From Isurus oxyrinchus (Eukaryota): a DNA stretch of 64,000 bases. The DNA is taken from positions 3,658,001-3,722,000 of the forward strand of contig JANJGN010000034.1 in NCBI GenBank assembly GCA_026770705.1, read 5' to 3'. Shown here piece by piece: positions 5,299 through 63,965 of this stretch. The position numbers were made by a program, and so were the translations under genes. The notes below the pieces were generated by a model that was given only the letters and a program-made list of their open reading frames with translations, was not told where the DNA came from and searched no databases. Within the stretch, counting starts at the first letter, position 1. Each line of letters begins with the position of its first letter.

Positions 5299-5334
5299 CA
5301 AAACCTTGGCTAGTGGAAATGCAGTCAGCCAACT
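5299..5334 (-). CDS. 36-nt microexon, (E)LADCISTSQGF
   Basis: tttgtttacatacag|agttggctgactgcatttccactagccaaggttttg|gtgaga. Confidence 0.75.
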
Positions 5335-8300
5335 CTGTATGTAAACAAAACAAAGAGTTCAGGCCGTGCATAAGTAATATTGCTGTAAGTGACGTCTTCC
5401 ATATTTTGGGGAAGTGAACCTGCCCTGTCAATGAACTTTAGTCCAAAATCCTGCCTTGTTAACAGTGATGATTGCCAACCCTTCCATAATTGCGTGAGCA
5501 ATGCCAGGAAATGAGGTTTTATTTCATAAGGTACAGTTGCCAGTAAATCCCTGAGATATAATTTGGGTTAAGTGCATTTTCATAATAAATTTTGCCAACA
5601 CATGCTTATTCGTTGTGTAACGATCACCAATTCAACAATAAATATGTATGAATGAAATAAAACATCATTGAATTGACGGCATTAGCATTAGATACCGAAA
5701 AGGATATATCCAAGCAAACGTATTGCTGATTCTGTCGAAGATGTTGCTTTGGCATAAATTAGAGATCGACGCTAAATTGCCTATTTTCTAAAAGAAAATG
5801 CTGTTTTATTCCCTCCAGCTTGAAAACAATCAGTAATCACCTGTTTCCTTTGATTTTAACTTTTCTTCTGTGAAGTGAAAGGTTTTCATCTCAATATATT
5901 ATTTGAATATATAACACATGTTACATCTTTCGCATGGAATTAGCATGTGATGTAACGTTGCACCATGAAACGCCGCGTATAATCGTGCCCTTTCCTTAAT
6001 AATAGTCACTTTGGAAACGTAGGAACATGAGAAAAACGCGTTCATCAAGATCTTGTTCTGTTACCAACTCATACAGACCAAATAATTTGAACTTAGGAAG
6101 GGCGAATAAACCCATTTAAGAGGTTAAAAACTAAACATAAAGACAACGGATAATCTCAGATATTAAGGGATGTTCATGGACAGGGGTTTGTCAGATGAAA
6201 GCAGACCACTACGCTGGGAGATGGGACTCCTGCAATTTGAACTTCAATAGTAGTAGGGAAAAAAAAACTATCATAGATGAAGATGCACTTGGATGAATTT
6301 GAGAACAAGGGCATGAAAACAAATACTGTTTTATTGGAACTGCAGAGAATGAAGGCTAGTACGAAAACAGTTGAATGGCAAAAGTGACTATGCATAAGTC
6401 AGGTGTATGATGAGCTCCAATAACGAAAAATGAAGTACAATAATAGCATAAGAAATAGGAGCTAGAGTGGACAACACAACCTGCGGAGCATGGCTGATCC
6501 TGCTATTCAACGCCAATCTCCCAACGGCCCCTCATACCCATTAATACTCTGAAAGAGGAAGACAATGTCAACCTCAACTTTAAATTGGTCAAATGAGAAA
6601 GCCTCCCCAACGCTTTGGAGTGCAGTATTCCAAAGACACATAAGCCTCCGAGTGAGTTTTGTTCCTCATGTCAGTTGAAAGTGACCTAGCCATCGTCCAG
6701 AAAAAATGCTCTCTGTTGCAGATTCCCCAATCAGGGGAAACATTTTTTTCCATGCCAACCGTTTTAGAACACGTAAGACAGTTGGTTGTTTCAATAAGAT
6801 CACGCCATATTTTTGTAAGCTCCAGAAAATATCGACCAACACTACACAGCTTCTCCTCATGCGAAAATGCTCTCCTCCCAGAGACCCATCCAGTAATACA
6901 TCACTGTAATGCTTCAAGCTCCAGCACACACTTATTTGCTTAAAACAAAATGGCCCACCGAGTTACCTCAACATTACCCACATTACACTCAATCTGTCAT
7001 GCAATTAACCTGTAGATATGGCTTTTTGAGAATACTTTTATGATAACCAAACTTGCCTCGTTTAGAAGCACTGAGATAGGGAACTTCAATTCTTAAAACG
7101 TCATGGAGCTTTTACGTATGTTCAGACCGGAAACGGCTGCACATATGCTGTGCGGCAATTTTACTTATTTTTAAGTACAGTAGTGTTGTGCATAAGGAGA
7201 TAACGTGAAAACGCGGATCAGGTAAATGACAACCAAGCATAGTTTGAGGAAGAGTCCCAGGGAAGGGCATGAACTGGTTCCAAAGGTTTTGGGACAGGGA
7301 GAGGTCCGAAAATAAAAGTTCCAAAGAGGGGACAGGGACAGAACGAGGCCCACTGTTCAGTTGAAAAGGAGGCAGAAACATGAAGTTTGCAAACAGGAAA
7401 GGATTGTGGATAGGAGGCTTTAAGTGTCGTAGGCTCAGGGGAAACACTGAAGTCAGAAGAATGCAGCCGAAATATGTTTATGGGGGTCTTTTATTGGCAA
7501 AGGTGCGCCTTTGGAGCAGCAGCTTTCTGCTAAGCTTTGCCTCAGATTTAAAAGTGTGCTTGTGAGTTAAACTTTGATTGTATATTTCGGAGGCCAGGGC
7601 AGCATAATCTTGGGATACGAGATTGAAATCCTACCAGTTTGGCCGATAATGTTGACTTTCAAATTGGAGTTACTTCTGGAAATATTTCCATGGATTAAGG
7701 TATTCGATTAGTTAAGACTGGTAAGTTATTGAGTAAGTAATTGAGACAGAGTTTCAGTGAGTTTCGTTGACTCATGGTGTCACTGCTTTCTCTATGGTCG
7801 ATTAATAAATCCAAGGCCTCTTCTCGCATCTCTCATTTATTGCAAAATGTGCTGTGTGCAACAATGATTAGCTTGTTAATTCACGTGTACCTTATACTTA
7901 CTTTGAATTTTGGTGTACAAGATATATATTGTAATTTAATTTTATCATTCTCACTTTGAAAGAAAGATTTTTTTTGTTGCTTAAACCGCATGGAATATTG
8001 TAGCATTTTCCCCACTGAGCAAGTGTCCTGAATCCCAAACCTTGTCCACTTTAAGAAAAAAAGAACGTTATTTATCCCTCATCTGAAGTTCCAGCAAGTT
8101 CATGTTATGACATTGTATCATGACAAAATATATTGTAAATAGTTTTAGCTCTAGTACTGATTGCTTGTGGATTTCACGAATAATAGTGTCAGCTGTGAAT
8201 TATTTCATTTATTCTTAAATCCTGTTTCATGTCCATTTACCAGTTCTCTGGCCATGCTAATGTATCACCCGCAGCCTTATGAGTCTTTTGCGCAGCACCT

Positions 8301-11300: not shown

Positions 11301-14300
11301 CTTCCCGGATTTGCCTTGGGCTGCAAGTCTTGTCAGTTATAAATAATGACACCGAGAGTGGCATTGGGACTAAGGCACGTAAACGTTAAAATTTGTGCAA
11401 ATTTGAAGACGGGACAGTTAGGTGACCAAGCGGATAAATGGATGCAGTATCGTCATATGGGTCGGATTGGGGAATAACAATCGCATAAAATAGACTTCAA
11501 CATCTATATTATTCTGGCCAACATAGCCATAATTTGCTGGTAACGTTATTATATGAAGTGCATATGCAATGGTGTTTTATGTTATTGTGCAGAGATAACG
11601 TTTTCTTTGAACAGTAGAATTGTTTCAACACAGCACAGAACCATCTGTCCCTCCTCGTGCGTGGTAGCTGTCTCTGAGAACAAATAAGTAAGCTTCACTC
11701 CAGTGCCTTGTCCTTCTCGTTCATTATGTGGACTCTTCCTTTATTTATTTTTGAAAACAGCCGCTAATCCTTCTTACAATAGGTTCCTGCAGATGCTAAT
11801 CACTCCCATGGAGAAGCAAAATAACGCTGAGTATTGGCTGCTACTTTGCCAGTCAGCTTCAGTCATTCTTCTCTGGTTCTCCAACGTTCTGTCAAACTGA
11901 TTCTGTTTTGTCCGTGTATTTTGGGAAGTTGCTATGCGATTATGTATAATTATTTTGCATCTCCTCTCAAACGTCCCTTCTACAACAACAAAAAAAAAAT
12001 CACCACCTCCATCAACATTCTCCTATAAGGTCACAATGTTTTCCATGTTTAGTCATGTCCAAAACTTGAAACACAACATTGCTTCCTCCAATTTAAAAAG
12101 AAAATACTCATGTTTTTCATTCCTCAATGCTCCTCATCACCAAGCCAACTTAGTTATGAATGTAAAATTCCTGCAACTGAAAGTAACCGAGCAAAATTTG
12201 CAAAGTGGCATTGATCATTTAGCTGCTTAGAGATCACCTGGAAGACCATGTTAACGTCCGGTGCCTTGAAATCTTCTTCCGCGCATGGAGCCAGGTAAAT
12301 TTGAAAGAAGGCAGCCTGAAGATTAAAGTACCAATGCAAATAAATGACGATCTCAAATGTTGATGACCTTCAGCCCATTTTTTGAAGAGCAGCCTCTTGA
12401 AAAACTGCAAGGATTTTATAGAATATTATCAGCGACCGTCTGATAGTTTATCGGGGATTTAAAACTGACAAGAGCCCAACTACCAGTGAGCTAATTGTAA
12501 ATCGGTATAAGAAGAGTCATGCTATTTGATGAATGTTCATTTTTATTCCAGTAGATGCCACGTGGGCACCTGAATTCGTTAGCCATTAGCAGCATTGTGA
12601 AATAAATTCTTGCACATGGAAAAAAAAAATAATAATGCCTGGAACAAGTTTTGCAACATATTAAGCTTCATAGTCTTCATTGTTAACAAACATACCATGC
12701 CATCGGCTTCGATATACTCCCTATGCTTGACATTGTCGAAGAGCCATTTTAGTGCATACTGATTTGCCTTGTTGTCCAGATGCTTTTCCCTTTTTGGCTA
12801 TTCACTTATATTGCACGTCCTCAGGCTATTCTGGGGGAGCGGGAGTAACGTTATGCGTGTTATTCGACACAGCATGCCTTTTGAATGAATGATTCACAAG
12901 CTCGTCGCCCCCTACCTATGAATTTCCTATACGTTTAGAACGTCAAGTCCACACCAATAAGGCAAATTCATGAACAGGTAATTTGCTTTAGCAATTTGTA
13001 TTCAAGATTCACCATGAAAATGAAAATAACGCTGGCGAATTTCCACAATAATTGAAAGAGACATTTTTGTTCACCTGAAAGAGTAAACTGAGCTTTAGTA
13101 CCTCGGCTTTAATAAAGCACTGCCAATAGGATATCCACCACAGTACTAGTGCAACGGCCCCAATTCTCCAACCGGAGTGTGATAACAATGTTAATCCATA
13201 CACGAGCACAATAAATCTTTTTAATACTTTTTTAGAGTGTCGGCTTCTTTTCTTAATGTACAAAGCGCAAGGAAGCAGACTGGCGTCAAGCACATCAGTG
13301 CAATGCAGAAATTAAGACAAGCAAATTAAGCAATGCTTCTCTGCCATCTTTGGCAGTACTCAGCGAAAAAAAAATATTTCTAATATCTTGTTGCCCCACT
13401 GATATGGAATACCATCCACAAAAATTTAAAAAATAGGGAACATAGAGCATTATGTATAAATGCAGTTTCAAATACATAACACATCGTTTGCACAGTTAAA
13501 AATACCAGAATGCCGCGAAAATGACACAGGAACAGAATATTCTTGATGGGTGTGTGCAGATTTTTAGGTATTCTAGGCAGCTTCCGCTCCCACACCACCC
13601 TCGCCCACACCCCATCCCCACACCCCATCCCCACACCACCACTGGACTTTTATTAGGGCTCAATTTGCTTTACAGATGGTAAACGGGAATACTTATGACT
13701 ATGTCTGCATTCCGTTCAAGACTTCTGGTCCAATTATTCGTTAGTGCTTTTTGTTCTCTGTCAGCTGTTAGCCTTTTATTATAGCTTGATGCTTCGCGCA
13801 ATCACAGAAATAAGTACGCTGTTTGTGATTGACTTGGAAGCATTCAGAAACAAAACTCTATAGGGTTCCAGGCACATTGAAGCTTCTGTTAATCAAACTC
13901 CACTTAATATTTGACAAAAAAATTACACTTATAACAACATTAATTCTAAGTGTTTAAACAGGCGATTTTCATGACACTTACCTATTTTCTTTAAGGTTTT
14001 TTGGCAGTTGGCTAATTCTGGGCAGAAAAAAAGAGGGAAAACATGTTCCTTTGAATTCATTTAGGAGCAACTTTACTAGAGAGTGATAGATTCTTTATGA
14101 ATCTGAATTAGTTGTTTATTCCATCAAGCCCATGCTGGCACTCTTCAGACAAGTAAATCCATAAAGTTTCGGTCCCATATCCCTCCTCCACAAGTACCAA
14201 AGGTTTCCATTGACACATCGATCTCTCCATGAAATTGTTAAAAGTCTCCGCTTCCACCAATATCAACAGCAGTTCCAGCGAGTTCCAGGCCGTTGCCATC

Positions 14301-50300: not shown

Positions 50301-53300
50301 GCCCAAAGTGATCTATTATCCGTAACATTAAGATGTGTGCAAAAATGCTTGGAAATGAAGCATAACAACCGTTTTGAAATATGCAACCAGCGAATTCTTC
50401 AACTGCATTACCATTGACGTTTTCTTCAAGTTTTCCTTCTGGTAGGAGGAAGAGACATTTCAGGAGAAGTTCGAATTAATGCAAGGCACTTGCTTTTTTA
50501 TCCAACAGAGAGGAACGTAACCAGTCTGTAGCTAAATTGTTATATGTACAAACACGCTATTACATCCATTACTCTGGACCAATTTTTCGGGAACTGTGTT
50601 TCATTGTCCCTTCATTATTGGCTGATATTTTTGCATGAGATCCTGGTATGTTGTACAGGTGCATACAAAAATATCAAGTTAATGATTCGCTGTGTGTGTT
50701 AAATTCGCAATTCCACACTCTTCAGGTTGAAAGTTCTATAATTAACTTCTAGAATTTTCTTACTTTGTTTGAAGATCAAATAATTGGGTTTGTACGTTTT
50801 GTGTTTGACAGTGTTATACATGTTCACAGCAATTTTCTTACCTAAATCTTTTATCGATTCGTTGCACTTGGCTAATTCTGCAACAACAAAAAAAATAATT
50901 GCTTTGTGTTTCTACTGAATATTTAGTTTGAATCATAAGCAGGCCCATAAGAAAAACAAATGTGCAACGCAATTTTTCGTTGTGATGCAGGAATAATCCA
51001 TTCATTTATCTGGATCTTTTTATTGTTGTGTGGAATTCAGCCAATACGCAATTTGATGGTATTAAGATAGCCTTCGATGCAACTCTTCCTCCTTGCATCA
51101 TGTTTGCATGCAGCAGGTCTATCTATGTCAACTAATGCTTGTGCTTATCAGTTATATATTCTACTTGCTATTTGTGTAAATTCATTTATTTCGGAGGTCA
51201 TAACGTATCAATCAGTGATTGCCTTATATCGGTCTCTCAAAATTGTTCTCATTCCACTTAAGAATATATTTCCTTCCGTCACCCATGTGAAGAAAAAGAA
51301 GAAACAAGGGAATTATACAAGGCTGATGTAGCATACCTGATAAGCATGTCCATTCTGGTCTTATGGAACATTACTGATACATCGCATTGTTTTGACAATG
51401 TATTGTACAACAGGGAAGTAAACCATGCACAGTGAATATCTGTTATGCTTACTAATGTGCTGTAAATATTAACACAACTTCCATACGTGTACAAGTCTAT
51501 CTTCTAAAATTATTCAGCTGAATCATGTCTTTCAGGGATAGTTTTCATTAATCCGCAAATTTTTGCCAGTGGTTATTCGTTTTGTGTGTCTATCTTTTAC
51601 TATTCTTTTGCTTTCATTTATTCCACAAAAGAGCAACAATTTATCTCTAAACCTGAAGTCTTCTACATGTTCCGTGACACTGATGAGGACTGAAATAGCC
51701 CACAGGTTCACACTGCTCAAAAAAAAATGTATGCTTCATCAGTTCTGACACCTTGCCAATGATTTTTTTCCCCTTTATATTCTCAAATATTGGATCAGGA
51801 AAACTGCTGCACAAATGTTCTTCAAATCTGACGGAACTGTCAGCCCAAACTCAATTTTCTCAACCATCTTGTGACCAATAGCACAGGTTGGAAAAAGAAA
51901 AACAAGTCACGTGTGCACTCAGCAATCTGTCGATATTGAACTCTTCGCCAATACCTCAGAGGTCGAATCTTACTTTTGTGCCTGATGTTCGTGTTCCTCG
52001 CTTATACTGTTACTGCAATTGTAAAGGCCAGGTCAACACGTTATTAGAGACGTATCATTGGTATTCTACTGTCAACGCTTTGATTTAATCTATTTTTAGC
52101 ATCCGGATGTACGTCTCTTCATCGAGCAAAAGTACATTCCACACACTTTCCGTAGTAATTAGACATATACAAACATTATCCAATTTCAAACCACGCTATT
52201 TATTTTTTGGTTAAATGAATAACTCCGAGCAAAGAATAAATCAGCGGATTCAGGAATTTGACGATCGTATAAATTGAGCAACTGCACCTCAAGAATTCAT
52301 TAATTGAAATATAATGCATATCATATATGGAGTCTCCAAGGGCGCGCCTTCTCAATGATTTAATGTCTAAAGACCTAAAACCCTCCAATTCTGGCGCTGG
52401 CAAAATGTAGGCCTTTTTCGAATCAGGGTTCTTTATCGAGCCGGAGTGAAAATCTGCAGACCCCTACACTCGAAAATGATCTTCCCTGACCTCTGCATTT
52501 CTCTCCTCCCATAAGAGGATCCTCAAAACGATTTCTTTAAATCATACGCTCTAATATTTATAACCTGATGTATTGCCTCATCCATGTTTCAGCTCAGGCC
52601 CCGTCNNNNNNNNNNNNNNNNNNNNNNNNNNNNNNNNNNNNNNNNNNNNNNNNNNNNNNNNNNNNNNNNNNNNNNNNNNNNNNNNNNNNNNNNNNNNNNN
52701 NNNNNNNNNNNNNNNNNNNNNNNNNNNNNNNNNNNNNNNNNNNNNNNNNNNNNNNNNNNNNNNGAGTTCAACTTTTATGAAAAGCGCAAATAGATAAAAG
52801 AGCAGAGAACTTGTATTAGACACCTACCTCTTCTGACTTCATGGATTGTGCCCTCTGTTGAAGGCAATTAAGATATGACCTATTTGCAACAACGCTTTAC
52901 TTTCAATATACGTTAGTAACAAAAGTTTCACAAAGATGCAGTTATACTATTCAAGTTACTGTTGTGATCCCCAGGCACATTCTTAGAACAGTGGAATCGA
53001 AAACTCATGTTCGCTTTCCTTTTTTGTTAAGATCGTTACAGATTTAGAGAATACCGAAAACCGAGGGTGTTGGCAGAAAATTAAAGAAGAAAATGAAAAT
53101 GTTGTCAATAAGTTTGAAAAATATACATGTGGTGGGCGTGAGATGTGGGTGCGCAATTTCAAGGAAGAGGCACATACATTGCCACGTTTTGTTCATGAAA
53201 ATAAAAAGCTCATGTTACTGCAAATTACGAATCTAAATCGGATAGTGTAGCAAAATGATGCGGGGATCTGAAAAACCACATTGCTGAAAATGTCGGATGA

Positions 53301-56300
53301 GATTAGTAAGACTGTGTAGAAGCTACTCATGGGCTACATTTATTTCAGGGAATCACAGCATTGAAAAAAGGAAAGTTATGCTCAACTTGTCTCGAGCATG
53401 TACACTGGGACCAGTCAAAGACTGGAACCATTCCCTCAGTTTGTCTCTCCAAAGATACTGTGAACTGACCCGCCCTGGTCTCTTATAATTATGGATATCC
53501 ATAAGTGCATTAACTTATTTTATTCGTTATGCAACGTAAGTGGATTGTGTATAAAACTCTTTGGTTTATATATTGGAAATATATCGTGATAATTTTGAAT
53601 CTTCCTGATGCCTGAAGTTGTCACAAGTGACGTGAACAAAAGTTTGAAATATGTTGCTAATTAGATGCAGAGGGAATTTGTTGGGAAGCTAGGATAAATA
53701 TCAGATAGAGAAATGAGAAAAAATGCTTATACCCAGCGTTCATTAAAAAAGTAGAATACAGCAATAGTGGAACTGTCTGATTTAAATTCGAACAGCTGCC
53801 TTTGGGGGGCAGCTGAAGAACACGTGAAGCAATTGAATGGAGGGTTTTGCCTATTAGGTAGATGAACAAAGTTAGGGACACAGGTAAGGGAGCATGAACG
53901 TTGGCTTGTAGTAATTAGGCTTAATGTGCTATTTCTGTGGAGTACATTGTAAATTATTCTATCTCAGCTGCATGGAGTTATATATGAATAAATGCCACTA
54001 GTTGCCTCCTTCGAGGTCATTGCATTAAGGTATCCATGCCAACACCAGTTCGCCAAACACCTTTTCTCTCTTTGAAATGGCTGGCTCTGACTCAAAATAA
54101 TTTCATCATCAAAACAGAAAGGCCATTATTGGTTTCATGTCACAGCTTGCAAGATAAATAAAGAAAGGCTTCTTTTTCAAATCACAACTTGACTGTATCT
54201 CGATAAATGTCTCCCGCCTTAGTATTCTCCAAACGTGCTGTATTTCTGCAATTCTGGTGTCCCCTGTAGACCAATTTTAATTGCTCAAACATTGTCGATC
54301 ATGCATTCAGATCCCTTATCTTTTAACATTTCTCGAAAAATCTCATTGCTATTCTTTCTCCTCGCCAACAGGCCAAATCCCTTCCCCAACCCCACCACCA
54401 ACTCTCACTCTGTGCCAGTCTGAGGAGCAAGTTCCAGCCTTTTTTTGCTGACCCATATCAATATAATATGTCAGTTAAAAACTTAACGCCATAGCCAGCT
54501 ATGTGAGTGCAGCCTGTTTTGTGAAATTTTACCCTTGAAACAGCTTTAAAAGTTGTAGGTGTAACAGAAATACATGATGCTACATGTGCTCATTCAGTTT
54601 TTTTATTTGACCCAGTTTGGCGCCAGTTCAAACCTAATCCAACAGGATGTCACTGATAAAACATTCACCAGAAAATGAAAATACATGGTCATGCATTGAA
54701 GCATCAGAAATGTATTTATATATATCCTCTTCTCACCTAACCTCTTGACCACATCTTTTCCATTTGTCAACTCTGTAAGAGAACCATGTGTCCAATAATT
54801 AGTTGAAGAACAAATAGTCGTCTGGTCGTGCATGGTTCGAGTATTTCTCAAAAAGAGACATGAAGCTCATTCGATGTGCTCATTAGGAAAAATTGCAGGT
54901 TTGCAAATAGCAAGCAAATTGCACTGCATGAGAAGGAAGTGCTGATTGGTTGGGGAATTGACCTATTACAAGGTGTGTTGCAATGACGAATGCAGCAGGG
55001 GACTTCTAGAAGCCAAGCAACATTTCAAATACAAACTAGGTTGGCCAAATCTAATTCGCAGTCAAATGGTGAAAATGTATTTTCTGTTTTCCTGCTATGG
55101 ACATGAAGATTACTAAATAAGCCTTTCCGTTAATTGGTTGCAAAATCAAACACGCTATTTTGCCAGCAACTCTGATGTACAATTTATTCTTATGTGAGAC
55201 AGCGGACTGGGAAATATGAGCTTCATATCAAGGTTAACATCATGGATCAAATTTTGCATTTCCAGAACCTCCGTCAAGATGCATAAAAATGATCTGTTTC
55301 CAACCTGGTTTTGGAATTGCTGGCAAAACGCTTGTGAACAGGTTGTTTGATCTTCCATACCTATTGAGTTCCGGGGTATTTTAACTGAGACATATCCCGC
55401 TGGGGAACCCCTATACCCCCAACCACGGACGACCCCCCGTAAAGTTTGCACAGCAAATGTTCCTTGGACAGTTGCCCTGCCTTTGCAACCAATGGAAAAA
55501 GCTATATAATTCACAGAGTACGAATTGTTTGAACGACCTTGCCAGAAAAGTTGTTCAGGATTGTTTGATGTAATAAGAACAGTCTATTCCTTATATAAAC
55601 GCAGTGCTACAATAGTGAAACTCCAGCCAACGGAACCCTCTAGCAACCGGATATTCACGAAAAACCCACCACTCCTGCACTGATCGAAAAAAAAACAAAG
55701 GAAAACCGTGTCCTGCCTTCTGCATTCACCACCCCAGGACCAGCTGGTTAGAACCCCCATGCTCCAATCCTATTCGCTTGTGATACAAACTTATCTTCTC
55801 CCCTACTTCTGAATGTGTTGCATCCCACGGGGGTGCATGCCATTTCATCATTAAACATCATGGATCGTTCCATATGTTCACCTTTTCCGGTTGCTTCTAA
55901 ATTTACTTCTATTCTGAAGCGCACACATACACATGAAACATCGGCTTTTTGCAGGCAGCTCTGTTAGAAAGGAACATGCCAAATACGGTATTCCAATGCA
56001 ACTCCCTCTCCTTTCATTCCAACTGGTGCAGCACCCGGATTTGGACGGTGCTGTCGAAGGACACTTCATGAGTATGGCCGTGCATCCTGTAACTTTATAC
56101 TTGGTATATTTCAAAAGTTTGAAACACTTCTTTCTTCTAACTCGTCCATAATGGTGTGCATACGTCAATGGCCTTTCCACAATGATACTGCATCTCAGCT
56201 CATCAACATATTCTTATTTCACTTTTGGCAACTTTTTTCCCTCCTTCCGGTGTACTGTTCAAGATTTTAACTATTAGTTATGCGATTTGTTTTGGAGGCT

Positions 56301-59300
56301 GTGTTAGGTTCACACTACCTAATAACGTTCGCCTGACAAGGCGTATATAGTTTCTACATTCCACATTTGAAACACTAATTAAATATTAAAATTCTGTATC
56401 AGTTGAAAAGTCAGCTTTCTTTTCTCTATTCCATTCTCCGGCACCGAAATTCAAATACTGTCTTAACCTTTTGTGTTACTGGGCAATGCCAGTTGCGATG
56501 GGACTGAGTAGCTGCAGGCTGGAATGCCCAGTTTCACCTGTTGCTAAGTTCCAAGCGATACATTCCTGTGTAAAGAATTCATACGGTGGAAAGTCAATAC
56601 CAACTCCAAATCCGCAAGTCCCCTACTCGACTTTTGGTGATCATTGCTTCCATACAATTTGCATCTATCCTCGTCCATAGCCTCGTTATCAGCACTTACC
56701 CGGCCTCTGCCGCCCAATACACTCACATAGAAACCCTTTCCAGAAGTCGATTTTTTTTTAGTTCTGGTCCAGTTTTCTTCAGCGTGGCTGTTGTGAAAAT
56801 AATTTGAAGAAACCGGCACAACACGCAGCTATTCAAACAGTTGAAACATACATGAAGTGTTCTTGCTCTCATCTGATTCTGTGACCATTGAACTGTTGTT
56901 TACGGTAATTGTGTAACATAAACGCACTTCTATCTTGATTTCTTATTGTTGGCAGTTACAGTGACTGGTTCGTGAAAGCCAGCTAAGCTATCCAGTTACG
57001 TTACAATGACTGGTAACTAACGCATGTACAATTGCCCCGGAATTGCCAGGAAGTGAACATTTGTTTCCATGATACTTTTCCTAATCAGCCTAGGGAATAA
57101 ACGTCAATTGTGTTTTTTTTAAAAGGATAGATTTATCAATTATATGTATAGTCTTGTCTATCAGTAGTAAAGGATTTAGCGATTGAAAATAACTGAGCAT
57201 GCGCGGTAATCAAGCCATTTTCCACTGGGCTAAAAATAATAATAAATCGAAAGGGACATATGATATAAACCAGCAGACCGATCTTCCCTCTGATGATATT
57301 TTGGCGACTACTGCATTATTGTTAAAATAGCACGGAAACTAAACTTATTTTACTTCCTATTAATTGTGGACCAGTGTCAGGAAGTACCTTTCTCTTTTTG
57401 TTTCAACTTTTCTTCTGTGAGGGAAAAGCTTTAGTACATTGAACTGTATAAAAAAAATCGTCTCCAAAGTTTTCTGAAGTTGTGATGGCAAATTCTTAAT
57501 TTCGTGATATTTGACACATGCATGACAACATTCAACTTGATTTCATTATTCGTCACAACAATAATGACACAGCCTGAGAACTGGTGTGACGGAGGCCTGG
57601 GTACAGTCTAAAAGCAGCGACAGCTGAGTCAATGTGGAAAACAGGGATACAGCTCTGATATTCAACGGTAGCAGTGAATGGCGACAGATGAGGTTGGAGA
57701 CGGTTTGCAGCTGAAACTCTAACGAACTCCAACAAAAGCATAATTAATGAGACAGCTTGCCTGTGTTCACATTCTGCTTTACGGCAGGCGCCCAAACACC
57801 AAATGTGGCGATATAAGGGTTGTGTGGCCGTTTCCATGCGGCAATGTCAAGGAGGACTGATAGTGTAAAGAAGGAAATGCCAGAAGCAAGAGCATATACA
57901 AGTGAAAAACAGACAGTGTTTGGCGAAGTATACATGGCCAGAAGTGGCGGGATGATGGTTTTGGTGGCCTAAAATGTTATTTCCATTCTGTTCCGTGTCG
58001 TGTTGAAATACAAGCAAGGATAAAGACGGTAACAGCCTGCTGCCGGTTAAGCTGATGCCAGACACTCAGCGAGCGCGTGACTGGATCGGGAATGTGACGT
58101 CGGACATTATAGAAAATGACCCCAAATCGATCTTTAGATAAAACATGGCCAAGAAATCATTGGTGCTTTCCGATTGGAGCAATACATTTTCTGGCCATCA
58201 TGGAACAATAAACGAACAAACAGCTTCAAAGGAACAGCAAGTACTTTCCTTACCTAACTCCGCGGCAAATATTTCAACTAATTGTGCAACACAGACATAT
58301 AGAATTTTCAGTTATAGTTACATCAGCATTAATTGTATCAGCTTTACTTCTTTAAAATGAGTTAAGCGGCATTTTATTTTTTAAATAAAAATAAACGCTT
58401 GCATTGTTTTGGCTACTTTCCATCATCCAAATATGTAAACAATAATTCCCTAGAAATAAATTGTTTTGAAATGTAGATTACACTCTGAATTTTCACGAGA
58501 CCCATTATTCATAAAATGCATTAATACCAAGCAGCAGTGAGCCATTGAGATTCCACTAAGTAAGTCTGAATATGGCACAGACATGAGTGCAAGTTTTCAG
58601 ATTAAAAAAAAAACATTGCAATGGCATTGAAAAATAAATGCTCTCAAAAATCGAATTTGATGTTCATAGAAATATTTAAGGTCACTTGAAACTGTTTTTA
58701 CGTGTTATTGGAGAAATATGTGCAATGAATCATAACCACGTGTTAAATGTTAAATATTGTACACAATTGAATTGCTTCACTACTTTACCGTTGTCTTTTT
58801 CTGCCAGTTTTCCTTCTGATGGGTAGAAAATACATTTGCAGAGAATTTCCTGTTAAGGAAAGCTACTTGCAATCCAATGAATCGATAAATTGTCATATGT
58901 TCAAAAATGTTATTGCATCAGTAACTGTACAGCAGCTTATTAGGAAACGTCTTCATCGTTTCATTGTTATATGCTGTTTTTGCATGATTATCTTGCGTAT
59001 TGTACAGTTACAGAAAACAATGTTAACTTCGTGATGTGCCGTGAGTTTACAAAATCATAGTCAACAGGTTCAAAACATATTTATTTTCTATTATTTTCTT
59101 AACCTGCTTGCAATTATAATAACTGGATTAACAAGAATAAATTAAAACATGTTTATAGATTGTTGCTCACCTAAGTCTCTTACTGATATTTTGCATGTAT
59201 TGAGTTCTGGTCCAGAGGAAAAGAGATTACTTTGTATGTCAATTGAACCTAAGATTCTTATGCTACAAAAAAAATATGGCTTTCCAAAATTCTACATTTT

Positions 59301-61554
59301 TTTTGTAATTTAAAACGCAGAAACAATGATTTTTTTCGACGTTTGTTTTCCCTTGCAGTGTCGTTTTTATACTCTCCTTAAAAATATATTTTCAACGTAC
59401 CAGCATACCCATCCAGTCAATCCTTGACCTCTTACATGTAGCAATGTTATCCTCCAAGAATCCAGGAGTCATGATGACAAATTCTTACATCTTTCGTGGT
59501 GTTTTAAACATCAATGGGAATGTGCATTCTGATTTATTTGTCGTAATTACCACATTAAGGTTACAGCCTAGCAGCTGCGGTGGCAAGAGATCTGATAGAG
59601 AAAAACTGCCGGGACAGCGGAGTGACTGTGGGCATGAGGGGGGTAGCTCAGAGATTAAAGTGCAGCAGCGTTTGTGGTAGATTTGGGTGGGCACTGAGCT
59701 CAAATCCAGTTGAGTTGAAAAGGATGATAGAGATTGCAATGGACACAAAAACAAAGCAAAATATGTAAAACAGTCATCTCGGGATACCAATAGAGAAAGA
59801 GGCGATTTCTTATGATTGCTGGCTCGACATCATGCTTATTATCAGTTGAAATACAGCATTTTTGATTGACCTATTTTATTAATAAGTGACTGTCTTAAAC
59901 TTGCATTCGAAAATATTCTTCACCCAACAGAGGCAAAGATGTGTTCTCGCTCACCATTGTATAAGACGCAAGGAAAGGATACCTGCCAGTAATAACTTAT
60001 CGCACAATATGATTAATTCTGCATTATCTACCATGCCCCACCCCCGCATCTATCCCCATGACGTGCAAACCCTTTGCACAAAATAGACATTTTAACCATG
60101 AGCTGTAATGAAAACTGAGGTTTCTCCATATACAGGAGAAGCTAAATATAATATCTACACGTATACACTTGTATCACCCTAATTTGATTTTGGCTGAATG
60201 TCTTCAATTAAGAATAGACCTTATTTATGTGAGAATATTGACCTGCTTTTATTAATCTCTACTATCAATCTTCCTTTGTTCGTCAATTTATTCAGAGAAG
60301 AGTAACCATTTCACCTTGAAACCTGAACTCGGCCAACCAGTTTGCCTTATTTTGATAAGTCCGGAAATTCCCCACAAATAAACACTGCCAGAGCACTTTA
60401 CGTTTTTTAAAAAAATCATGATGTTCTCCTGATAAGTCCTAAAATTGCTGTATTCTGAAATTATACAATAACATATCCTTTTAGATTCTATGGGAAATGC
60501 CAGTCCCAGCCCCCGTCCTTTACAATTATCTGGCCGTAAAGTACAGATTCAAAAAAACGCCACAAGTCACACATTCATCTTAGCACTCTGTAGAAGGTGA
60601 ACTCTTCGTCTCAGTATCACTGAAGTCCATCTTTTTTTTTCTGACGTTGGTGTTCCTCGACCTGTAACGCCACTGCATTTTCTAAACGCTATTTCTACAC
60701 CCAACGGTGATTTAGCCTTACCATACCAATATTAAGGCGTTGATTTAATCTATTATAAGCAATGTGATATTTTTTTATTCGTGGAGCAGAGGGCTAAAGG
60801 ACATTTACATAACGAAGAAGCTGAGGGACCGACACATTATTCGATCCATAATGAAAATGTCAACCCTACAAATTCATGTGGGCATTAGCAACGCAAGCTA
60901 TATTTTCCACTCTGCATATTTTAGACACAGTACGACATATACAATGGTTACCAGATTTCCAGCGGTACCATCTAATTTTTCAATGGATGAACAACTTAGA
61001 GCAGAAAATAAAGCAGCAATTTTAGGAAGTCGACTATCTAATGAAACAAACGATCACACTGCAATAATTTATATGGTTGGATTCTAAAAAATAACCACTA
61101 TGCAGCCGACAATGTTTTGCCTCCACTGCTTCTTTTTTTAGTAGCAGCCTTTTACCTCTACAAAACTTGGCTTTCCCATGAGTTGGGTCTCTTGACAATC
61201 CAGGTTTTCCGCCCAACCAGCGCCTACAACTCCTGAGTGACATGCTTTGAAATTGCCTTTCTTGTGCCATAGATCTCCCCCTTCCTTAAAACGTTTCTTT
61301 ACAGCGAATTCTTCTGTCAAGTTTCTTATATGTGTTCTGTTCTATCAGAGCTGCATTAATGTCAGAGCCTTAATTCTTGGTGCTTTCTTGCTCATGAAAC
61401 CTTCTGGTGTACTGTTTTAAATGCTTATTTTTGCATTCGGTCTTTTTCAGTTCCAACTTTCTACAAAGAGAGCATGCCTACGTTTTCAATTCGATAAACG
61501 AGCATAGCGGTGGAATGAACCCCCTACCTTTTCTTACTGCATCTATTGTTTCCG
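5299..61554 (-). CDS. Partial multi-exon gene (or two tandem paralogs) built from alternating 36-nt/27-nt phase-1 microexons encoding a Cys-containing coiled coil; ends not identified
   Basis: Over 20 segments flanked by AG and GT, with lengths 27 or 36 (two of 24), all ending in G and stop-free in phase 1. They share motifs (36: xLxxCxxx[LIV]xxL; 27: Exx[LI]xxxxx). Spliced in order: AETIDAVRK-ELNTCKISVRDL-EGKLAEKDN-(VEIFAAEL)-EEKLKQKEK-EVNLEATGK-ELTNGKDVVKRL-EGTIHEVRR-ELAKCNESIKDL-EGKLEENVN // VKKLEGKDK-EIAKCQGSLQEL-ENRLQAKDK-DYAKCLETLKEL-EAKLKVKDK-GIANCQELIKEL-EKKQEEKAN-(AGIEIHYLNWQL)-(ELKQIQIE)-ESLLETIEK-DEKIRGLKG-ELANCQKTLKKI-EEKLKSKET-ELADCISTSQGF. Confidence 0.8.
5841..5867 (-). CDS. 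27-nt microexon, (E)EKLKSKET
   Basis: ctttcacttcacag|aagaaaagttaaaatcaaaggaaacag|gtgatt; close paralog of 57388-57414. Confidence 0.78.
6445..7010 (-). mobile_element. Old CR1 LINE 3' fragment
   Basis: Begins ataagaaataggagc... like a reversed CR1 3' end; ORF 6666-6929 has LKRLAWKKMFPLIGES, resembling the CR1 RT C-terminus. Confidence 0.6.
10185..10910 (+). mobile_element. Decayed CR1-group (Zenon-like) LINE fragment
   Basis: NNLLTDxQxGxR and QGSVxxxIIFSC-like RT remnants, followed by the family 3' tail (ggactgcagcggtccaagatggaggctc...atgggcaata). Confidence 0.72.
13982..14017 (-). CDS. 36-nt microexon, (E)LANCQKTLKKI
   Basis: ctctttttttctgcccag|aattagccaactgccaaaaaaccttaaagaaaatag|gtaagt; strong consensus splice sites. 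Confidence 0.85.
14640..14762. mobile_element. Short inverted pair of Penelope terminus fragments
   Basis: aaatccaaaacaaaaaatgctggaacaactc...gttatcgtttcgactc followed by the reverse-oriented cagatttccagcatcagcagtattttg; both match the terminus at 39465-39575. Confidence 0.6.
16100..17280 (-). mobile_element. Old CR1 LINE remnants
   Basis: ORF 16229-16603 ends in CVHARGMPNK, resembling the CR1 ORF2 start (xNARSIRNK); heavily decayed. Confidence 0.45.
17317..17343 (-). CDS. 27-nt microexon, (D)EKIRGLKG
   Basis: actctcaaacag|atgagaaaatacgtgggctaaagggag|gtacgt. Confidence 0.65.
17900..18480 (-). mobile_element. Decayed CR1-group (Zenon-like) LINE fragment
   Basis: Collinear similarity to 3100-3700. 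Confidence 0.55.
19762..20036 (-). mobile_element. tRNA-headed SINE (decayed)
   Basis: ttcattgaattcaaatttcaccatctg...agagcattaccctaggtctct...gtgacaatacca matches the copies at 35400-35783 and 36688-37075. Confidence 0.65.
21009..21035 (-). CDS. 27-nt microexon, (E)SLLETIEK
   Basis: gctgtctgttgcag|agtcattgttggaaacgatcgagaaag|gtactt. Confidence 0.72.
21833..21856 (-). CDS. Candidate 24-nt microexon, (E)LKQIQIE (shortened 36-type?)
   Basis: gaacccag|agctgaaacaaattcaaattgaag|gtaacc; phase-1 symmetric, weak pyrimidine tract. Confidence 0.45.
22192..22227 (-). CDS. Candidate divergent 36-nt microexon, (A)GIEIHYLNWQL
   Basis: aaagccag|ctggtattgaaatacattatttgaactggcaattag|gtaaaa; exact length and family ttag|gt end, no Cys, weak acceptor. 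Confidence 0.4.
22376..22402 (-). CDS. 27-nt microexon, (E)KKQEEKAN
   Basis: cttgttaatag|aaaaaaagcaggaagaaaaagctaatg|gtaaac; flanks homologous to the 26591, 28230 and 29953 exons. Confidence 0.72.
22800..22835 (-). CDS. 36-nt microexon, (G)IANCQELIKEL
   Basis: tttgtctgtgttccag|gaatagcgaattgccaagaattgattaaagagttag|gtgagt. Confidence 0.85.
23848..24600 (+). mobile_element. Probable PIF/Harbinger-derived remnant
   Basis: Terminus ggggctgaattttacgc; ORF 24219-24578 ends YTTLRVYRQCYCNL, resembling the N-terminal region of Harbinger transposases; recognition only. Confidence 0.45.
24935..25955. mobile_element. Two old Penelope 3' ends in inverted orientation
   Basis: 24935-25445 minus (ttgaactcattatttcgtgccgaattttgtgaagtgcc matches the GIY-YIG end); about 25465-25955 plus encodes LRLGAL*PPSLNNEFSNF (cf. 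FRLGTLQPSGLNIEFNNF) and then the terminus. Confidence 0.7.
26591..26617 (-). CDS. 27-nt microexon, (E)AKLKVKDK
   Basis: gatgattaacag|aagcaaagctgaaagtcaaagacaaag|gtaaac. Confidence 0.8.
26853..26888 (-). CDS. 36-nt microexon, (D)YAKCLETLKEL
   Basis: ttgtcttcgatccag|attatgctaagtgcctagaaacattgaaagaattgg|gtgagt. Confidence 0.85.
28230..28256 (-). CDS. 27-nt microexon, (E)NRLQAKDK
   Basis: tttttctaccgaacag|aaaacaggttgcaagccaaagacaaag|gtacac. Confidence 0.8.
28657..28692 (-). CDS. 36-nt microexon, (E)IAKCQGSLQEL
   Basis: gtctccaacacag|aaatagccaaatgccaagggtcgctgcaggaattag|gtgagt. Confidence 0.85.
29953..29979 (-). CDS. 27-nt microexon, (V)KKLEGKDK
   Basis: gttttctgcctaacag|taaaaaagcttgaaggcaaagacaaag|gtaatt. 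Confidence 0.8.
30168..30197 (-). pseudogene. Eroded 36-type pseudo-exon
   Basis: ...aaatgccaatgaaatcaggaaactg|gttagt at the position expected from the tandem unit; KCQ followed by a stop, no AG acceptor. Confidence 0.4.
30420..31240 (+). mobile_element. Old CR1 LINE remnants
   Basis: IIGVTEIWL-like APE motif near 30470-30500, followed by decayed RT-like sequence. Confidence 0.45.
31627..31662 (-). pseudogene. Possible eroded 36-type pseudo-exon, xQTVCKENLDRL
   Basis: Keeps the C5/L9/L12 register of the family; the donor reads ctgact instead of gtgagt. Confidence 0.3.
32380..32912 (-). mobile_element. Penelope-derived mini-element: internal pre-RT fragment between inverted termini
   Basis: Minus strand encodes PDIVLKRSDKGGAVVV*RKGLYLVETKSQLSDTS (Penelope DKG motif); left caggtctggcagcatctg and right agatgctgccaga are inverted. 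Confidence 0.75.
35275..35995. mobile_element. Inverted Penelope termini (about 35275-35392 minus; about 35895-35995 plus) with hammerhead relics, interrupted by a SINE
   Basis: gttctgttgaagaatcattcggactcgagatgttaac (plus, about 35897-35933); its inverted counterpart gttaatatttcgagttgaatacgactcttattccgaac near 35355-35391. Confidence 0.65.
35400..35783 (-). mobile_element. tRNA-headed SINE with LINE-derived 3' tail
   Basis: A-box TGGCATAGTGG and B-box-like GGTTCAAAT on minus; tail ggatgtgggcattgct...ggccagcatttgttgtgcatccc. Confidence 0.75.
36688..37075 (+). mobile_element. tRNA-headed SINE with LINE-derived 3' tail
   Basis: Full-length decayed copy: ...aaaaacgcatctggttcac...atgtggttgactctt...acgacgccgacatcccatgaa. 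Confidence 0.75.
39561..39599 (-). ncRNA. Minimal type-I hammerhead ribozyme motif (Penelope-associated)
   Basis: agtt-CTGTCGA-a-gggtc-atgaa-gactc-GAA-ACGT-C-aact: stem I agtt/aact, 5-bp stem II, palindromic ACGT stem III; the core has U in place of A6. Confidence 0.7.
39622..39781. other. Assembly gap (160 N)
   Basis: Run of N. Confidence 1.
40066..41055 (-). CDS. Penelope ORF C-terminal part: RT C-terminus/thumb + linker + GIY-YIG endonuclease
   Basis: Stop-free frame PSIIFTWS...LPFLDL...YKPTDSHSYL...CPRKRCNTC...NLVYCIRCSQCGLLYIGETKRKLGDRFAEHL...GLNIEFNNFRS. Confidence 0.93.
   Translation of the reverse strand, partial: PSIIFTWSISDTSLPFLDLSVSISGDRLSTNIHYKPTDSHSYLDYSSSHPASCKDSIPFSQFLRLRRICSDDATFKNSSSDMSSFFLNRGFPPTVVDRALNRVRPISRASALTPSPPSQKHDRVPLVLTYHPTSLRIQRIILRHFRQLQHDATTKHIFPSPPLSAFRRDRSLRDTLVHSSITPYSSTPSYGTTPCPRKRCNTCPFTSSLLTVQGPKHSFQVKQHFTCISPNLVYCIRCSQCGLLYIGETKRKLGDRFAEHLRSVRKNDPNLPVACHFNTPPCSLAHMSVLGLLHCSSEAQRKLEEQHLIFRLGTLQPSGLNIEFNNFRS
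49000..49075. repeat. Degenerate (ATT)n low-complexity tract
   Basis: cattattattattaatattgttattattattatcatcatt... Confidence 0.8.
50412..50438 (-). CDS. 27-nt microexon, (E)GKLEENVN
   Basis: ctcttcctcctaccag|aaggaaaacttgaagaaaacgtcaatg|gtaatg; paralog of 58789-58815. Confidence 0.82.
50842..50877 (-). CDS. 36-nt microexon, (E)LAKCNESIKDL
   Basis: tttttttgttgttgcag|aattagccaagtgcaacgaatcgataaaagatttag|gtaaga. Confidence 0.87.
52606..52763. other. Assembly gap (158 N)
   Basis: Run of N. Confidence 1.
52828..52854 (-). CDS. 27-nt microexon, (E)GTIHEVRR
   Basis: ttgccttcaacag|agggcacaatccatgaagtcagaagag|gtaggt; paralog of 61528-61554. Confidence 0.75.
54737..54772 (-). CDS. 36-nt microexon, (E)LTNGKDVVKRL
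   Basis: gttctcttacag|agttgacaaatggaaaagatgtggtcaagaggttag|gtgaga; Gly at the Cys position. Confidence 0.8.
55882..55908 (-). CDS. 27-nt microexon, (E)VNLEATGK
   Basis: gcttcagaatag|aagtaaatttagaagcaaccggaaaag|gtgaac; a competing out-of-frame AG lies 5 nt upstream. Confidence 0.6.
56727..56763 (-). pseudogene. 37-nt frameshifted 36-type exon containing an A9 run
   Basis: ctggaccag|aactaaaaaaaaatcgacttctggaaagggtttctat|gtgagt; acceptor context identical to the 59171-59206 exon (ctggaccag|aact). Confidence 0.5.
57388..57414 (-). CDS. 27-nt microexon, (E)EKLKQKEK
   Basis: cttttccctcacag|aagaaaagttgaaacaaaaagagaaag|gtactt. Confidence 0.82.
57560..58110 (-). mobile_element. Probable old L2-type LINE remnant
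   Basis: Weak resemblance to the L2 endonuclease/linker region; a similar remnant lies at about 59560-59760. Confidence 0.35.
58254..58283 (-). CDS. Variant 36-type exon: 30 nt with a CAC (dead) acceptor, or 24 nt via an in-frame TAG, (V)EIFAAEL
   Basis: tgtctgtgttgcac/aattag|ttgaaatatttgccgcggagttag|gtaagg. Confidence 0.5.
58789..58815 (-). CDS. 27-nt microexon, (E)GKLAEKDN
   Basis: ttttctacccatcag|aaggaaaactggcagaaaaagacaacg|gtaaag. Confidence 0.82.
59171..59206 (-). CDS. 36-nt microexon, (E)LNTCKISVRDL
   Basis: cttttcctctggaccag|aactcaatacatgcaaaatatcagtaagagacttag|gtgagc. Confidence 0.85.
61528..61554 (-). CDS. 27-nt microexon, (A)ETIDAVRK
   Basis: cttgtctttaacag|cggaaacaatagatgcagtaagaaaag|gtaggg. 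Confidence 0.78.
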
Positions 61555-63928
61555 CTGTTAAAGACAAGTAAAACAATACGTGATTGAGTACCACAAAGCA
61601 TAATTTAAATATCGGACAGTTACTAAATGTTCTTAAAGCTGCAAACAGCAGCCCTGGTTAATGCTGTAAGATACAACCACACAGTTTGAAATATTCTGCA
61701 ACGAATAATGAATACTGAAATTTTGCACCTTTTTTGCTTTTTCGTTCTTATTAAACTAATTACTTCAGTTTATATTGACGATTGTTATATCTTATATTTT
61801 CCATTGGGAACACACATATTGAACAGCAAAAACCGAGGATGATTGCAAAAAATACAATATCCATATATATTAATACATTTGCAGAAGAGAAATGTAGAGG
61901 GAAAGTGAATATCAGGGCCAGTTACACTGAAGAGCCCCGTTTTCTTCATTGCAATAATGGGTCATATATAGTTTTCAACTTACGAATTTAAATTGAATAG
62001 TCTATCGAAAGCATGGGGGAATATAAATTTGCACGGGACTAAAAGTGCCGACACGGAGCAGTGTGAACATATAGAAACTACGGAATGCATGTGTTTAATT
62101 GATCGAGTGTGTAAGTGGACCTATGGAACGGATTTTTAGTTGTGACTTTAATAACTACTTTCATATTACATTCACTGTGGTTATCGCACAACAATATGCC
62201 TTCATCTTATACTAACACGAGCCAAAGGAGATAATTTGTACCCTGCCCTTTATAAACTAATCTGCGCTACTTAAGGCTTACTTCCTGATTTGCAACAACC
62301 AGATCAGTTGAATGAGAAATGGTTATCCGTGCAGTTATAACATTAAATATCATTTAGAACAAAAAATAAAGGGTCTGTTAAAAATTTACATTAGACCTTG
62401 TAAAAAAAACGTTCAATATGTCTGCTAAATACCAGATAGAACTGTGAAATTTAGACAGGGTCACTCTTCCAAGAGAACAAACGATAATGTTAATGGAACC
62501 ATTGCTCACAGGGCTTTTTCTTTTCTTTTCCCAGGCGAAAACAAATTTGGTTGATGCCTTATTATAAGAATGCAATTATGGATTGTCCTACTAAAACACA
62601 CAAAAAAGAGCTATAACTTGAAGAAGGGCCGATGAAGTGTCAATGTCTTGTGCGAGCTGTCCGAGCATTGTTATATCCTACTTGAAAAAAAGTGGTCATT
62701 TAAGCTTCCTGCCAATTGCTTTCTTAAAACAAGGAAACAGTGAGATCCACTTAAAACATCTTGAAGTGATTACAACCCTGAGATAAACAGTGAAATACGT
62801 TTATAAACAGCCGTGGTCTCTTCTGTAATCTGGCGATTTGAAAGAGTCCACGTTCAAAACCAGAAGAAAGGAAATTTCTCTCCTTCCAATGGCCCCTGAT
62901 TTCAGCTGCTAAAAGTCTCTCGAAAGTTTTGACTAGAAAGCTATCACAGTTGCAGAACCGGTGGTAGAGCCTCACGATCTATACTTTAGTCAATCTACAT
63001 CTCAACTTCAAAATAAATGGGGCCTGCACTTGCACTGACTATGGACCATTCTCTTTTTTAAGTTTATATCTATCGATGTATTACATTTTGAAGCTAATGT
63101 TTGTGTTTATTTGTCTTTATTTCTAAGTATAAAGAAAATGATGCTGTGTTATTTTATATTAAATCATTCACGCGACCGTTCTGAAATATTCATCCTTACA
63201 AATACACAATAGAGAAGCGACTCTGAGTGAAAAAAAAAAATCTAAAGCGCATCTGGCACTAATTAGTGCACTTTGGATAGTTTATAATGGAAACCTTGGT
63301 TATTAATCAAATCTTTATTTTATTAAGGCTGGATTATACTCAGAATCATTTATGCCTAAAAAAAAACATGCTGTTGTAAGTATATGCATTTGAGATCAAT
63401 CTCAAATCGGATACTATGTGATAGATCCGCGTCACTCTAGTTTGAAAAACGTTGAGATGAGATTGTGCAATTACTGTACAATTATGGAAAATCGGGTAAT
63501 AGTTAACACACAGTGACAATTTCTATTGTTGCATCTGATAGACAATGTACGCAAACAAATAAAACCCAATAAAAACTTCAATTATGCCTGTGGCCAATTG
63601 CAGAATTGCAACGGGTTCTATTCGACATAAGGTACTTTTACTTCCTAGCTTAAAAGTTGCATTTCCGGGAGACATTTTTGGCTACCAGTGCCCTGTTAAA
63701 AATAGATGGTATACCCTCTGCATGACATCTCACGTGGCAAATTCGAAGCACTTATCACTGTCAGCTTCGCCTGAGTCTGTAGATTTTGTCCTTTGTGAGC
63801 TGGCAAGGTTTCAATTAATCAGATTAGCTCTTTTACAATATTCCCTACTTAGTAAATATTCAACCTAAGACTTCTGCATCAGTAGAGGTGTGCATTAGTT
63901 TATAATTATATCTTGAAATAACGTTCAC

Positions 63929-63965
63929 CTAATTTGATCACTGAAGTCTCTTGATTTACTTAGTA
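63929..63965 (-). pseudogene. Damaged 36-type exon ending ...TSVIKL
   Basis: ...tcagtgatcaaattag|gtgaac; expected acceptor reads CAT (37 nt); an AAG would give an in-frame 30-nt exon (63929-63958). Confidence 0.45.

Follow-up and report, generated by a model that had tools for sequence, protein, structure and literature searches.

Long tails with a heptad pattern, encoded by many tiny in-frame exons, are described for the chicken BG genes and a BG-derived zipper protein (PMC4046983, PMC8813856). In the sections of these papers cited here, BG genes have 13-36 exons of 21 (24) nucleotides (nt), an immunoglobulin (Ig) V-type (IgV) domain and a transmembrane (TM) segment, with no B30.2 domain described (PMC4046983, PMC8813856), and they form a tandem gene cluster, with tails that are alternatively spliced and change rapidly (PMC4046983, PMC8813856, PMC5938342). 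Butyrophilins (BTNs) of the BTN3A1 type, as presented in the cited parts of the literature, have an IgV-IgC-TM architecture and a short heptad region on short phase-1 exons, followed by a phase-1 terminal B30.2 exon (PMC8813856, PMC12841164, PMC7348870). A coding region made from many short exons is also described, in the cited portion of the source, for the micro-exon genes of Schistosoma (bioRxiv 10.1101/2023.06.21.545858). Here, a 64,000-nt stretch of the shark Isurus oxyrinchus (assembly GCA_026770705.1, contig JANJGN010000034.1, positions 3,658,001 to 3,722,000; the window) was analysed, which carries an array of 27- and 36-nt microexons on its minus strand. The favoured reading, with a probability of about 0.58, is that the array belongs to a gene of ~450-500 kb encoding a coiled-coil rod with a B30.2 head, a cytosol-facing tether of adjustable length that resembles an extended BTN- or BG-like tail without Ig domains.

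Microexons in the window and extent of the gene

Coordinates without the prefix C34 or C21 are in window numbering (position on the window's contig, C34, minus 3,658,000, so that sites below the window are negative), and the assembly searched comprises 4.98 Gb. A plain scan of both strands for AG-(27/36)-GT segments that are stop-free in phase 1 revealed a surplus of such segments on the minus strand only. For a held-out test, position matrices were trained on 31 36-nt and 38 27-nt exons, all outside the window, with the plus strand and 100 dinucleotide-type resamples of the window serving as controls. Eight 36-nt matches (18.4-54.8 bits) and 12 27-nt matches (at least 15 bits) were recovered on the minus strand, against none above 0 bits on the plus strand and resample means of 0.01 matches for 36-nt and 0.02-0.08 for 27-nt exons. 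The exon-shaped segments reported by an earlier, sequence-only reading of the window are therefore real, and the shuffled-sequence and plus-strand controls it had proposed both came out in its favour.

Some details of that reading had to be adjusted. It counted 13 27-nt and 8-9 36-nt segments; the present catalogue has 12 strong 27-mers, eight 36-mers and three weaker 27-nt candidates that raise the window total to 23 exons. The supposed ninth 36-mer (63929-63964) contains a stop, lacks the AG and is at best a decayed copy. The 20 strong exons of the window have AG/GT ends and an open frame; one weaker candidate, 48267-48293, ends in T rather than G. The alternation described earlier holds for 15 of the 22 transitions among the 23 exons, while seven are 27-to-27 and none is 36-to-36, so that it is loose in the window, where 27-36-27 triads are present. 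A strict doublet arrangement of 36 and 27 nt was confirmed for one block of 13 doublets outside the window (C34:3,561,711-3,620,470, about -96k to -37k).

The extent of about 58 kb suggested earlier was far too small. When the adjoining 200 kb on the lower side and 400 kb on the upper side were included (664 kb in total), the entire window (1-64000) lies inside one minus-strand gene region, and the array continues far past it on both sides, downstream to C34:3.478 Mb (~-180k) and upstream to ~C34:3.93-3.95 Mb (+270-290k), perhaps +317k, a span of ~450-500 kb. The resulting catalogue, in which eight exons were added by hand and the 5'-most exons are unsure, contains 116 exons encoding 1,170 residues with a median gap of 2.3 kb. 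Almost all (111/116) have a length of 27 nt (69 exons) or 36 nt (42), the others being three of 30 nt, one of 24 nt and one of 21 nt, and 113 of the 116 end in G. A candidate at 290890-290916 overlaps an old retroelement-like frame and may be false.

The flank check for Ig, TM or B30.2 exons that had been recommended yielded a terminal phase-1 exon encoding a B30.2 (PRY-SPRY) domain, 183 kb downstream of the window, and no second B30.2 exon in the 664 kb. The best match of the family's B30.2 profile in the PDB is BTN3A1 (E 2.5e-29). We infer that all ~116 microexons and this exon form one transcript; the contigs of four RNA runs checked for the B30.2 exon of this gene, and of four checked for that of a sister gene, did not cover it and are neutral on this point.

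Coding pattern, relatives and sister genes

The strong exons behave as coding sequence. In-frame stops occur in none of 90, compared to 70/90 and 30/90 in the other two frames, and third codon positions are the most variable. Hydrophobic residues dominate at positions 2, 5 and 9 of the 12-mers encoded by 36-nt exons (shares of 0.95, 0.93 and 0.86) and at position 4 of the 9-mers (0.80), giving an a-d-a-d-a pattern across 21 residues. In the strict block, a period of 3.5 reached a power of 7.1, compared to at most 3.4 in 200 exon-order shuffles. The earlier proposal of a protein-coding modular array that spells a coiled coil like a BG or butyrophilin tail is supported by these results. Cysteine (Cys) takes residue 5, a core position, in 19 of the 42 36-mers, concentrated from +116k to -37k, and the window is the Cys-rich middle of the gene.

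The 36-mers co-vary with the following 27-mer (Mantel rho 0.42, 0/2000 permutations) and less so with the preceding one (rho 0.15, 27/2000 permutations). Deep intron flanks are alike in the strict, young block, with values of 14.5-22.7 compared to a background of 2.2 (95th percentile 5.0). Taken together, this likeness and the co-variation indicate that exon-plus-intron doublets were duplicated in tandem. The flanks of the window 36-mers (3.9-4.0) are no longer alike; since intron homology is lost there and the exons are intact, this older part kept only exons and splice sites.

A tree of 37 B30.2 domains was built from 13 family members, nine BTNs, three teleost giant proteins and 12 TRIM-type proteins, with BTN3A1 absent, a midpoint root and the family rows picked with the same profile. 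The 13 family domains, from this genome, catshark, basking shark, skate, electric ray, elephant shark and one other, are split off by a 100/100 branch. At the level of sequence, they form a cartilaginous-fish clade apart from the sampled BTNs and TRIMs. The gene combines the two features that define this rod-B30.2 family, namely a B30.2 domain of the chondrichthyan clade and an upstream array of 27/36-nt phase-1 exons.

All relatives' proteins are predicted models, and the public ones are annotated as TRIM39/58/69-like, A33-like or nuclear-pore anchor-like. The catshark protein XP_038668997 is 72% identical in the B30.2 domain, and the blocks before it match the exons at -145805, -147754, -150065 and -179581 (weakly -174047) in the same order, while its first ~125 residues look unrelated. 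Residues 250-900 of the elephant-shark protein XP_042192744 (1,697 amino acids) score 15.1 per 100 residues against the exon profiles of this gene (shuffles 2.2 +/- 0.9). This protein tiles into 9/12-residue blocks over 252-333 amino acids, compared to at most 114-141 in 300 shuffles (252 vs at most 114 for blocks starting with E/D). Among RefSeq isoforms of homologues from catshark, ray and chimaera, a single block separates the members of each pair; it has 9 residues in three pairs and 6 in the fourth. Structure resources added little: the ESM Atlas gave generic matches only (under 0.9), AlphaFold models of the skate protein (pLDDT, the predicted confidence score, 45) and of the B30.2 alignment (pLDDT 49) were too poor, and a two-copy complex prediction for the skate homologue (score 0.01) gave no answer.

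Four further B30.2 exons, 43-45% identical, are located on C34 at 2.709 Mb (-) and at 4.817, 6.396 and 7.497 Mb (+), each with 27/36-nt exons within 50 kb upstream. The five-gene cluster spans C34 2.7-7.5 Mb, about a quarter of the 20-Mb contig. Of 12 samples of 10 kb each, taken from 2.95 to 7.1 Mb, 11 carry microexons on the expected strand and none on the opposite one. The next gene lies head-to-head from about +347k and covers ~0.8 Mb (C34:4005537-4817018, +); beside its 27/36-nt exons, it has heptad exons of 21 nt in a block that starts at +412k. The 80 kb covered for the fourth sister (C34:6397001-6477000) contain 21-nt exons from 6.459 Mb but no copy of the 111-nt 5' exon of two of its sisters, described below. 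This sister may have arisen as a partial duplicate that lacks the 5' part, or it may represent an alternative 3' end of the preceding gene. Behind two of the B30.2 exons, a 16.6-kb segment occurs twice with 78% identity (C34:4829865-4846174, 6435801-6452072). Left of the cluster, numerous long open frames overlap one another at C34:2648001-2668000, which is probably repeat or retroelement sequence, and about seven weak IgV-like matches stand in tandem at C34:15.74-15.87 Mb.

A sixth member with microexons is located at C21:89.72 Mb (C21:89693001-89723000), ~4 Mb from class I genes of the major histocompatibility complex (MHC), near a class I/BTN/TRIM cluster, and is orthologue-like to the catshark protein XP_038672308. 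A second B30.2 match on C21 (91.35 Mb) has no microexons in 30 kb. Linkage of the C34 cluster to the MHC was rejected, as 31 of 33 class I matches fall on C21, two on C16 and none on C34; a class II search of the genome gave no match.

Proposed product and competing explanations

Splicing of the ~116 phase-1 microexons to the terminal B30.2 exon would give a rod of at least 1,170 residues. Coiled coils rise 0.148 nm per residue, which would make it about 170 nm long. The rod would oligomerise as a parallel coiled coil and hold the B30.2 heads at a set distance from an N-terminal anchor, presumably a short hydrophobic N-terminus, found in sister genes but not in this one, that would fix it to the cytosolic side of a membrane. 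All exons are phase 1-1 with lengths divisible by three, so that the frame is preserved when one is skipped or gained, and the length is changeable by splicing and duplication; in-frame skipping of single exons would thereby vary the rod.

The head may, as a guess, bind an anionic ligand through basic residues in common with the BTN3A1 pocket. The motifs W-x-R, R-T-L-G-like and F-K/R are kept in most family members and align with or resemble this pocket, and the equivalents of K393, R412 and R469 look conserved. The same applies to W391, which is, together with H351, a pocket residue according to the cited part of PMC7348870.

Several observations weigh against this reading. The first exon of the gene was not found despite an upstream search, and the proposed topology therefore rests on sister genes. 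The hydrophobic start of the 111-nt exon in two of them might instead represent the last part of a signal peptide, and read-through into introns may account for the N-termini of the skate and elephant-shark models. H351 is not conserved in the head, and the clade does not group with the sampled BTNs. Since open exons served to train the matrices, the stop-free count involves some circularity. Within the window itself, the periodic signal is weak (power 2.9, with shuffles reaching 4.2), as 30-residue units formed with a third class of 27-mers break the heptad register; these units may be hinges. The Cys residues in the core would suit an oxidising space. Between the two closest sisters, microexons differ at 28/287 sites, with three synonymous and 20 non-synonymous codons, and introns differ by 12%; purifying selection on rod residues is therefore weak. 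BG tails vary under selection too, according to the cited section of PMC5938342.

The core Cys and the sisters' N-terminus are also the basis of the main rival explanation, which is considered unlikely. In this view, the product would lose a signal peptide by cleavage and be secreted as a disulfide-linked fibre or collectin-like stalk that carries a B30.2 recognition head and acts in mucus, egg case, or seminal or uterine fluid. Upstream of their first 27-nt microexon, two sisters share only a 111-nt phase-1 exon and a 36-nt exon. The former opens with 6-9 hydrophobic residues; split leaders likewise have an exon that begins in phase 1 with a few hydrophobic residues. A hydrophobic N-terminal exon is present in two of the five C34 genes, no counterpart was found for this gene, and a homologue search with the 111-nt exon yielded nothing. 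Teleost proteins with a signal peptide, ~1,300 residues of coiled coil and a B30.2 domain exist, but they form a separate B30.2 clade without 9/12 tiling. Furthermore, there are only three N-glycan sequons in 1,170 amino acids, and XP_042192744 starts with a 15-residue hydrophobic run that precedes a strongly basic cluster, an arrangement found in membrane anchors. The leader-exon candidates failed as well: +302787 is antisense of a frame like that of a long interspersed nuclear element (LINE), and C34:4840063 lies in the 16.6-kb segment, whose second copy has no ATG and no donor. Of the other first-exon candidates, C34:3457358 is a repeat, and C34:3953612, 3981461 and 4854941 are unique yet unsupported.

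The teleost giants themselves (1,535-2,154 amino acids; leader-like start, giant coiled coil, B30.2 domain), misnamed golgin or EEA1, were rejected as orthologues on the same two grounds, with only 51-60 residues of 9/12 tiling. They are apparently a separate, uncharacterised group.

As the 5' end was not located, the gene could alternatively be a true butyrophilin/BG receptor or a TRIM whose Ig-TM or RING/B-box exons lie farther upstream or are too divergent to be detected. The tail design and the B30.2 domain match BTNs (PMC8813856, in the part cited), and the C21 member has BTN and class I neighbours. However, an exon-scale motif search of 864 kb, comprising the surroundings of this gene and two sister 5' ends, revealed neither Ig nor RING nor B-box motifs, whereas it detected 8/8 BTN and 6/6 TRIM controls. 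A BTN IgV query had no match on C34 2.7-7.5 Mb, while true BTN IgV exons are located on C21, and Pfam scans of P0126, P0224 and P0233 revealed no RING or B-box. As for a full TM exon, none was found for this gene, and two sisters have the short hydrophobic exon start mentioned above. In one sister, ~42 kb separate the end of the previous gene from the 111-nt exon, and only this exon and microexons are common to both sisters. This explanation is thus improbable, and the earlier suggestion that the array belongs to an Ig-TM receptor of the BG/BTN/ERMAP group could not be upheld.

It is very improbable that the array is a decaying relic or is only partly used, with a short 3' part expressed and pseudo-exons in the middle. 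The decayed copies at 43264-43290 and 63929-63964, a 16-kb stretch without exons at 30-46 kb of the window, the mostly short public models of homologues (358-460 amino acids) and the weak amino-acid constraint between sisters could be explained in this way. Nevertheless, 20 window exons retain length, AG/GT and frame despite the lost intron homology, all five C34 genes have an undamaged B30.2 exon, and the 1,697-residue elephant-shark model includes Cys-type middle blocks.

Beyond the favoured tether, a broader proposal is tentative and rather unlikely to hold in full. It describes a 400-million-year-old cartilaginous-fish family with genes of 0.5-1.5 Mb, among the most exon-rich in vertebrates, whose at least 100 interchangeable microexons would encode B30.2-tipped rods of hundreds of nm. 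Length and surface would be varied by skipping and by exon birth and death, and the rods might serve as a splice-programmed ruler or a variable immune tether.

The features of the window and the terminal exon are listed in Table 1. In addition, retroelement remnants were observed at 40069-41081 (-) and 1083-1992 (-). The former lies inside the exon-free gap, and its GIY-YIG match (E 2e-4, under the cut-off) suggests a Penelope-like element. Two intronic short tandem repeats are located at 48997-49068 and 13589-13637.

Table 1. Microexons, decayed copies and terminal exon, with scores of microexons and candidates from the held-out matrices unless stated otherwise
Feature	Position	Strand	Support
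27-nt microexon, class preceding Cys-type 36-mers	61528..61554	-	33.5 bits
36-nt microexon, Cys at residue 5	59171..59206	-	24.6 bits
27-nt microexon	58789..58815	-	29.5 bits
27-nt microexon	57388..57414	-	56.3 bits
Weaker 27-nt candidate	55882..55908	-	7.2 bits
36-nt microexon	54737..54772	-	18.4 bits
27-nt microexon	52828..52854	-	19.6 bits
36-nt microexon, Cys at residue 5	50842..50877	-	54.8 bits
27-nt microexon	50412..50438	-	20.2 bits
Weaker 27-nt candidate, last base T not G, fits class order	48267..48293	-	7.0 bits
27-nt candidate starting like a 36-nt exon, possibly shortened	46119..46145	-	<0 bits; 19.8 with general model
27-nt microexon	29953..29979	-	33.8 bits
36-nt microexon, Cys at residue 5	28657..28692	-	24.6 bits
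27-nt microexon	28230..28256	-	35.3 bits
36-nt microexon, Cys at residue 5	26853..26888	-	32.2 bits
27-nt microexon	26591..26617	-	33.4 bits
36-nt microexon, Cys at residue 5	22800..22835	-	33.7 bits
27-nt microexon	22376..22402	-	24.0 bits
27-nt microexon	21009..21035	-	15.0 bits
27-nt microexon	17317..17343	-	22.0 bits
36-nt microexon, Cys at residue 5	13982..14017	-	44.1 bits
27-nt microexon	5841..5867	-	21.7 bits
36-nt microexon, Cys at residue 5	5299..5334	-	22.5 bits
36-nt-like copy without AG, in-frame stop; 30-nt AG..GT version 63929-63958 possible	63929..63964	-	-7.8 bits
Decayed 27-nt pseudo-exon without GT donor; acceptor and body resemble the class	43264..43290	-	19.6 bits without GT requirement
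Terminal phase-1 B30.2 (PRY-SPRY) exon, 173 codons with stop	C34:3474116-3474636 (window -183884 to -183364)	-	Pfam SPRY E 2.9e-18

Comparison with known systems

In searches of the full-text literature, with subscription papers and supplements outside the scope, no description of a cartilaginous-fish microexon rod-B30.2 family was found, and the family's homologues sit in public annotation mostly as misnamed fragments. Schistosoma micro-exon genes, whose products are secreted and are not known to have a rod or a B30.2 domain, are unrelated to the shark family. The teleost giants (XP_042081404, A0A669BKT8) share domain order and size (1,535 amino acids), but differ in their B30.2 clade, the missing 9/12 tiling and a clear leader-like N-terminus. 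TRIM proteins likewise combine a coiled coil with a B30.2 domain, whereas no RING or B-box was found here and the microexon-encoded rod has roughly ten times the length of theirs. PMC13749957, in the part cited, lists enterophilin-1. This mammalian protein is a leucine-zipper rod with a B30.2 domain and without known Ig domains, far shorter than the shark rod.

Compared to butyrophilins, the shark family has a separate B30.2 clade, a divergent PRY half and no H351. Compared to BG, the gene spreads its more than 110 exons of 27/36 nt across ~0.5 Mb and ends in a B30.2 exon, and an Ig exon was not found. Sister genes carry blocks of 21-nt exons, the size of BG exons, while only 1 of the 116 exons of this gene has that length. 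Judged by its sequence, the gene would work like a BG or butyrophilin tail at an extreme scale, yet shows neither the Ig domains of both groups nor the RING of TRIMs. It offers a natural test bed for a spliceosome confronted with 100+ consecutive exons of 27-36 nt that are separated by 2-kb introns, and can serve to benchmark annotation that takes microexons into account. As a BG/BTN tail design taken to the extreme and separated from the Ig ectodomain, it bears on the origin and role of such tails.

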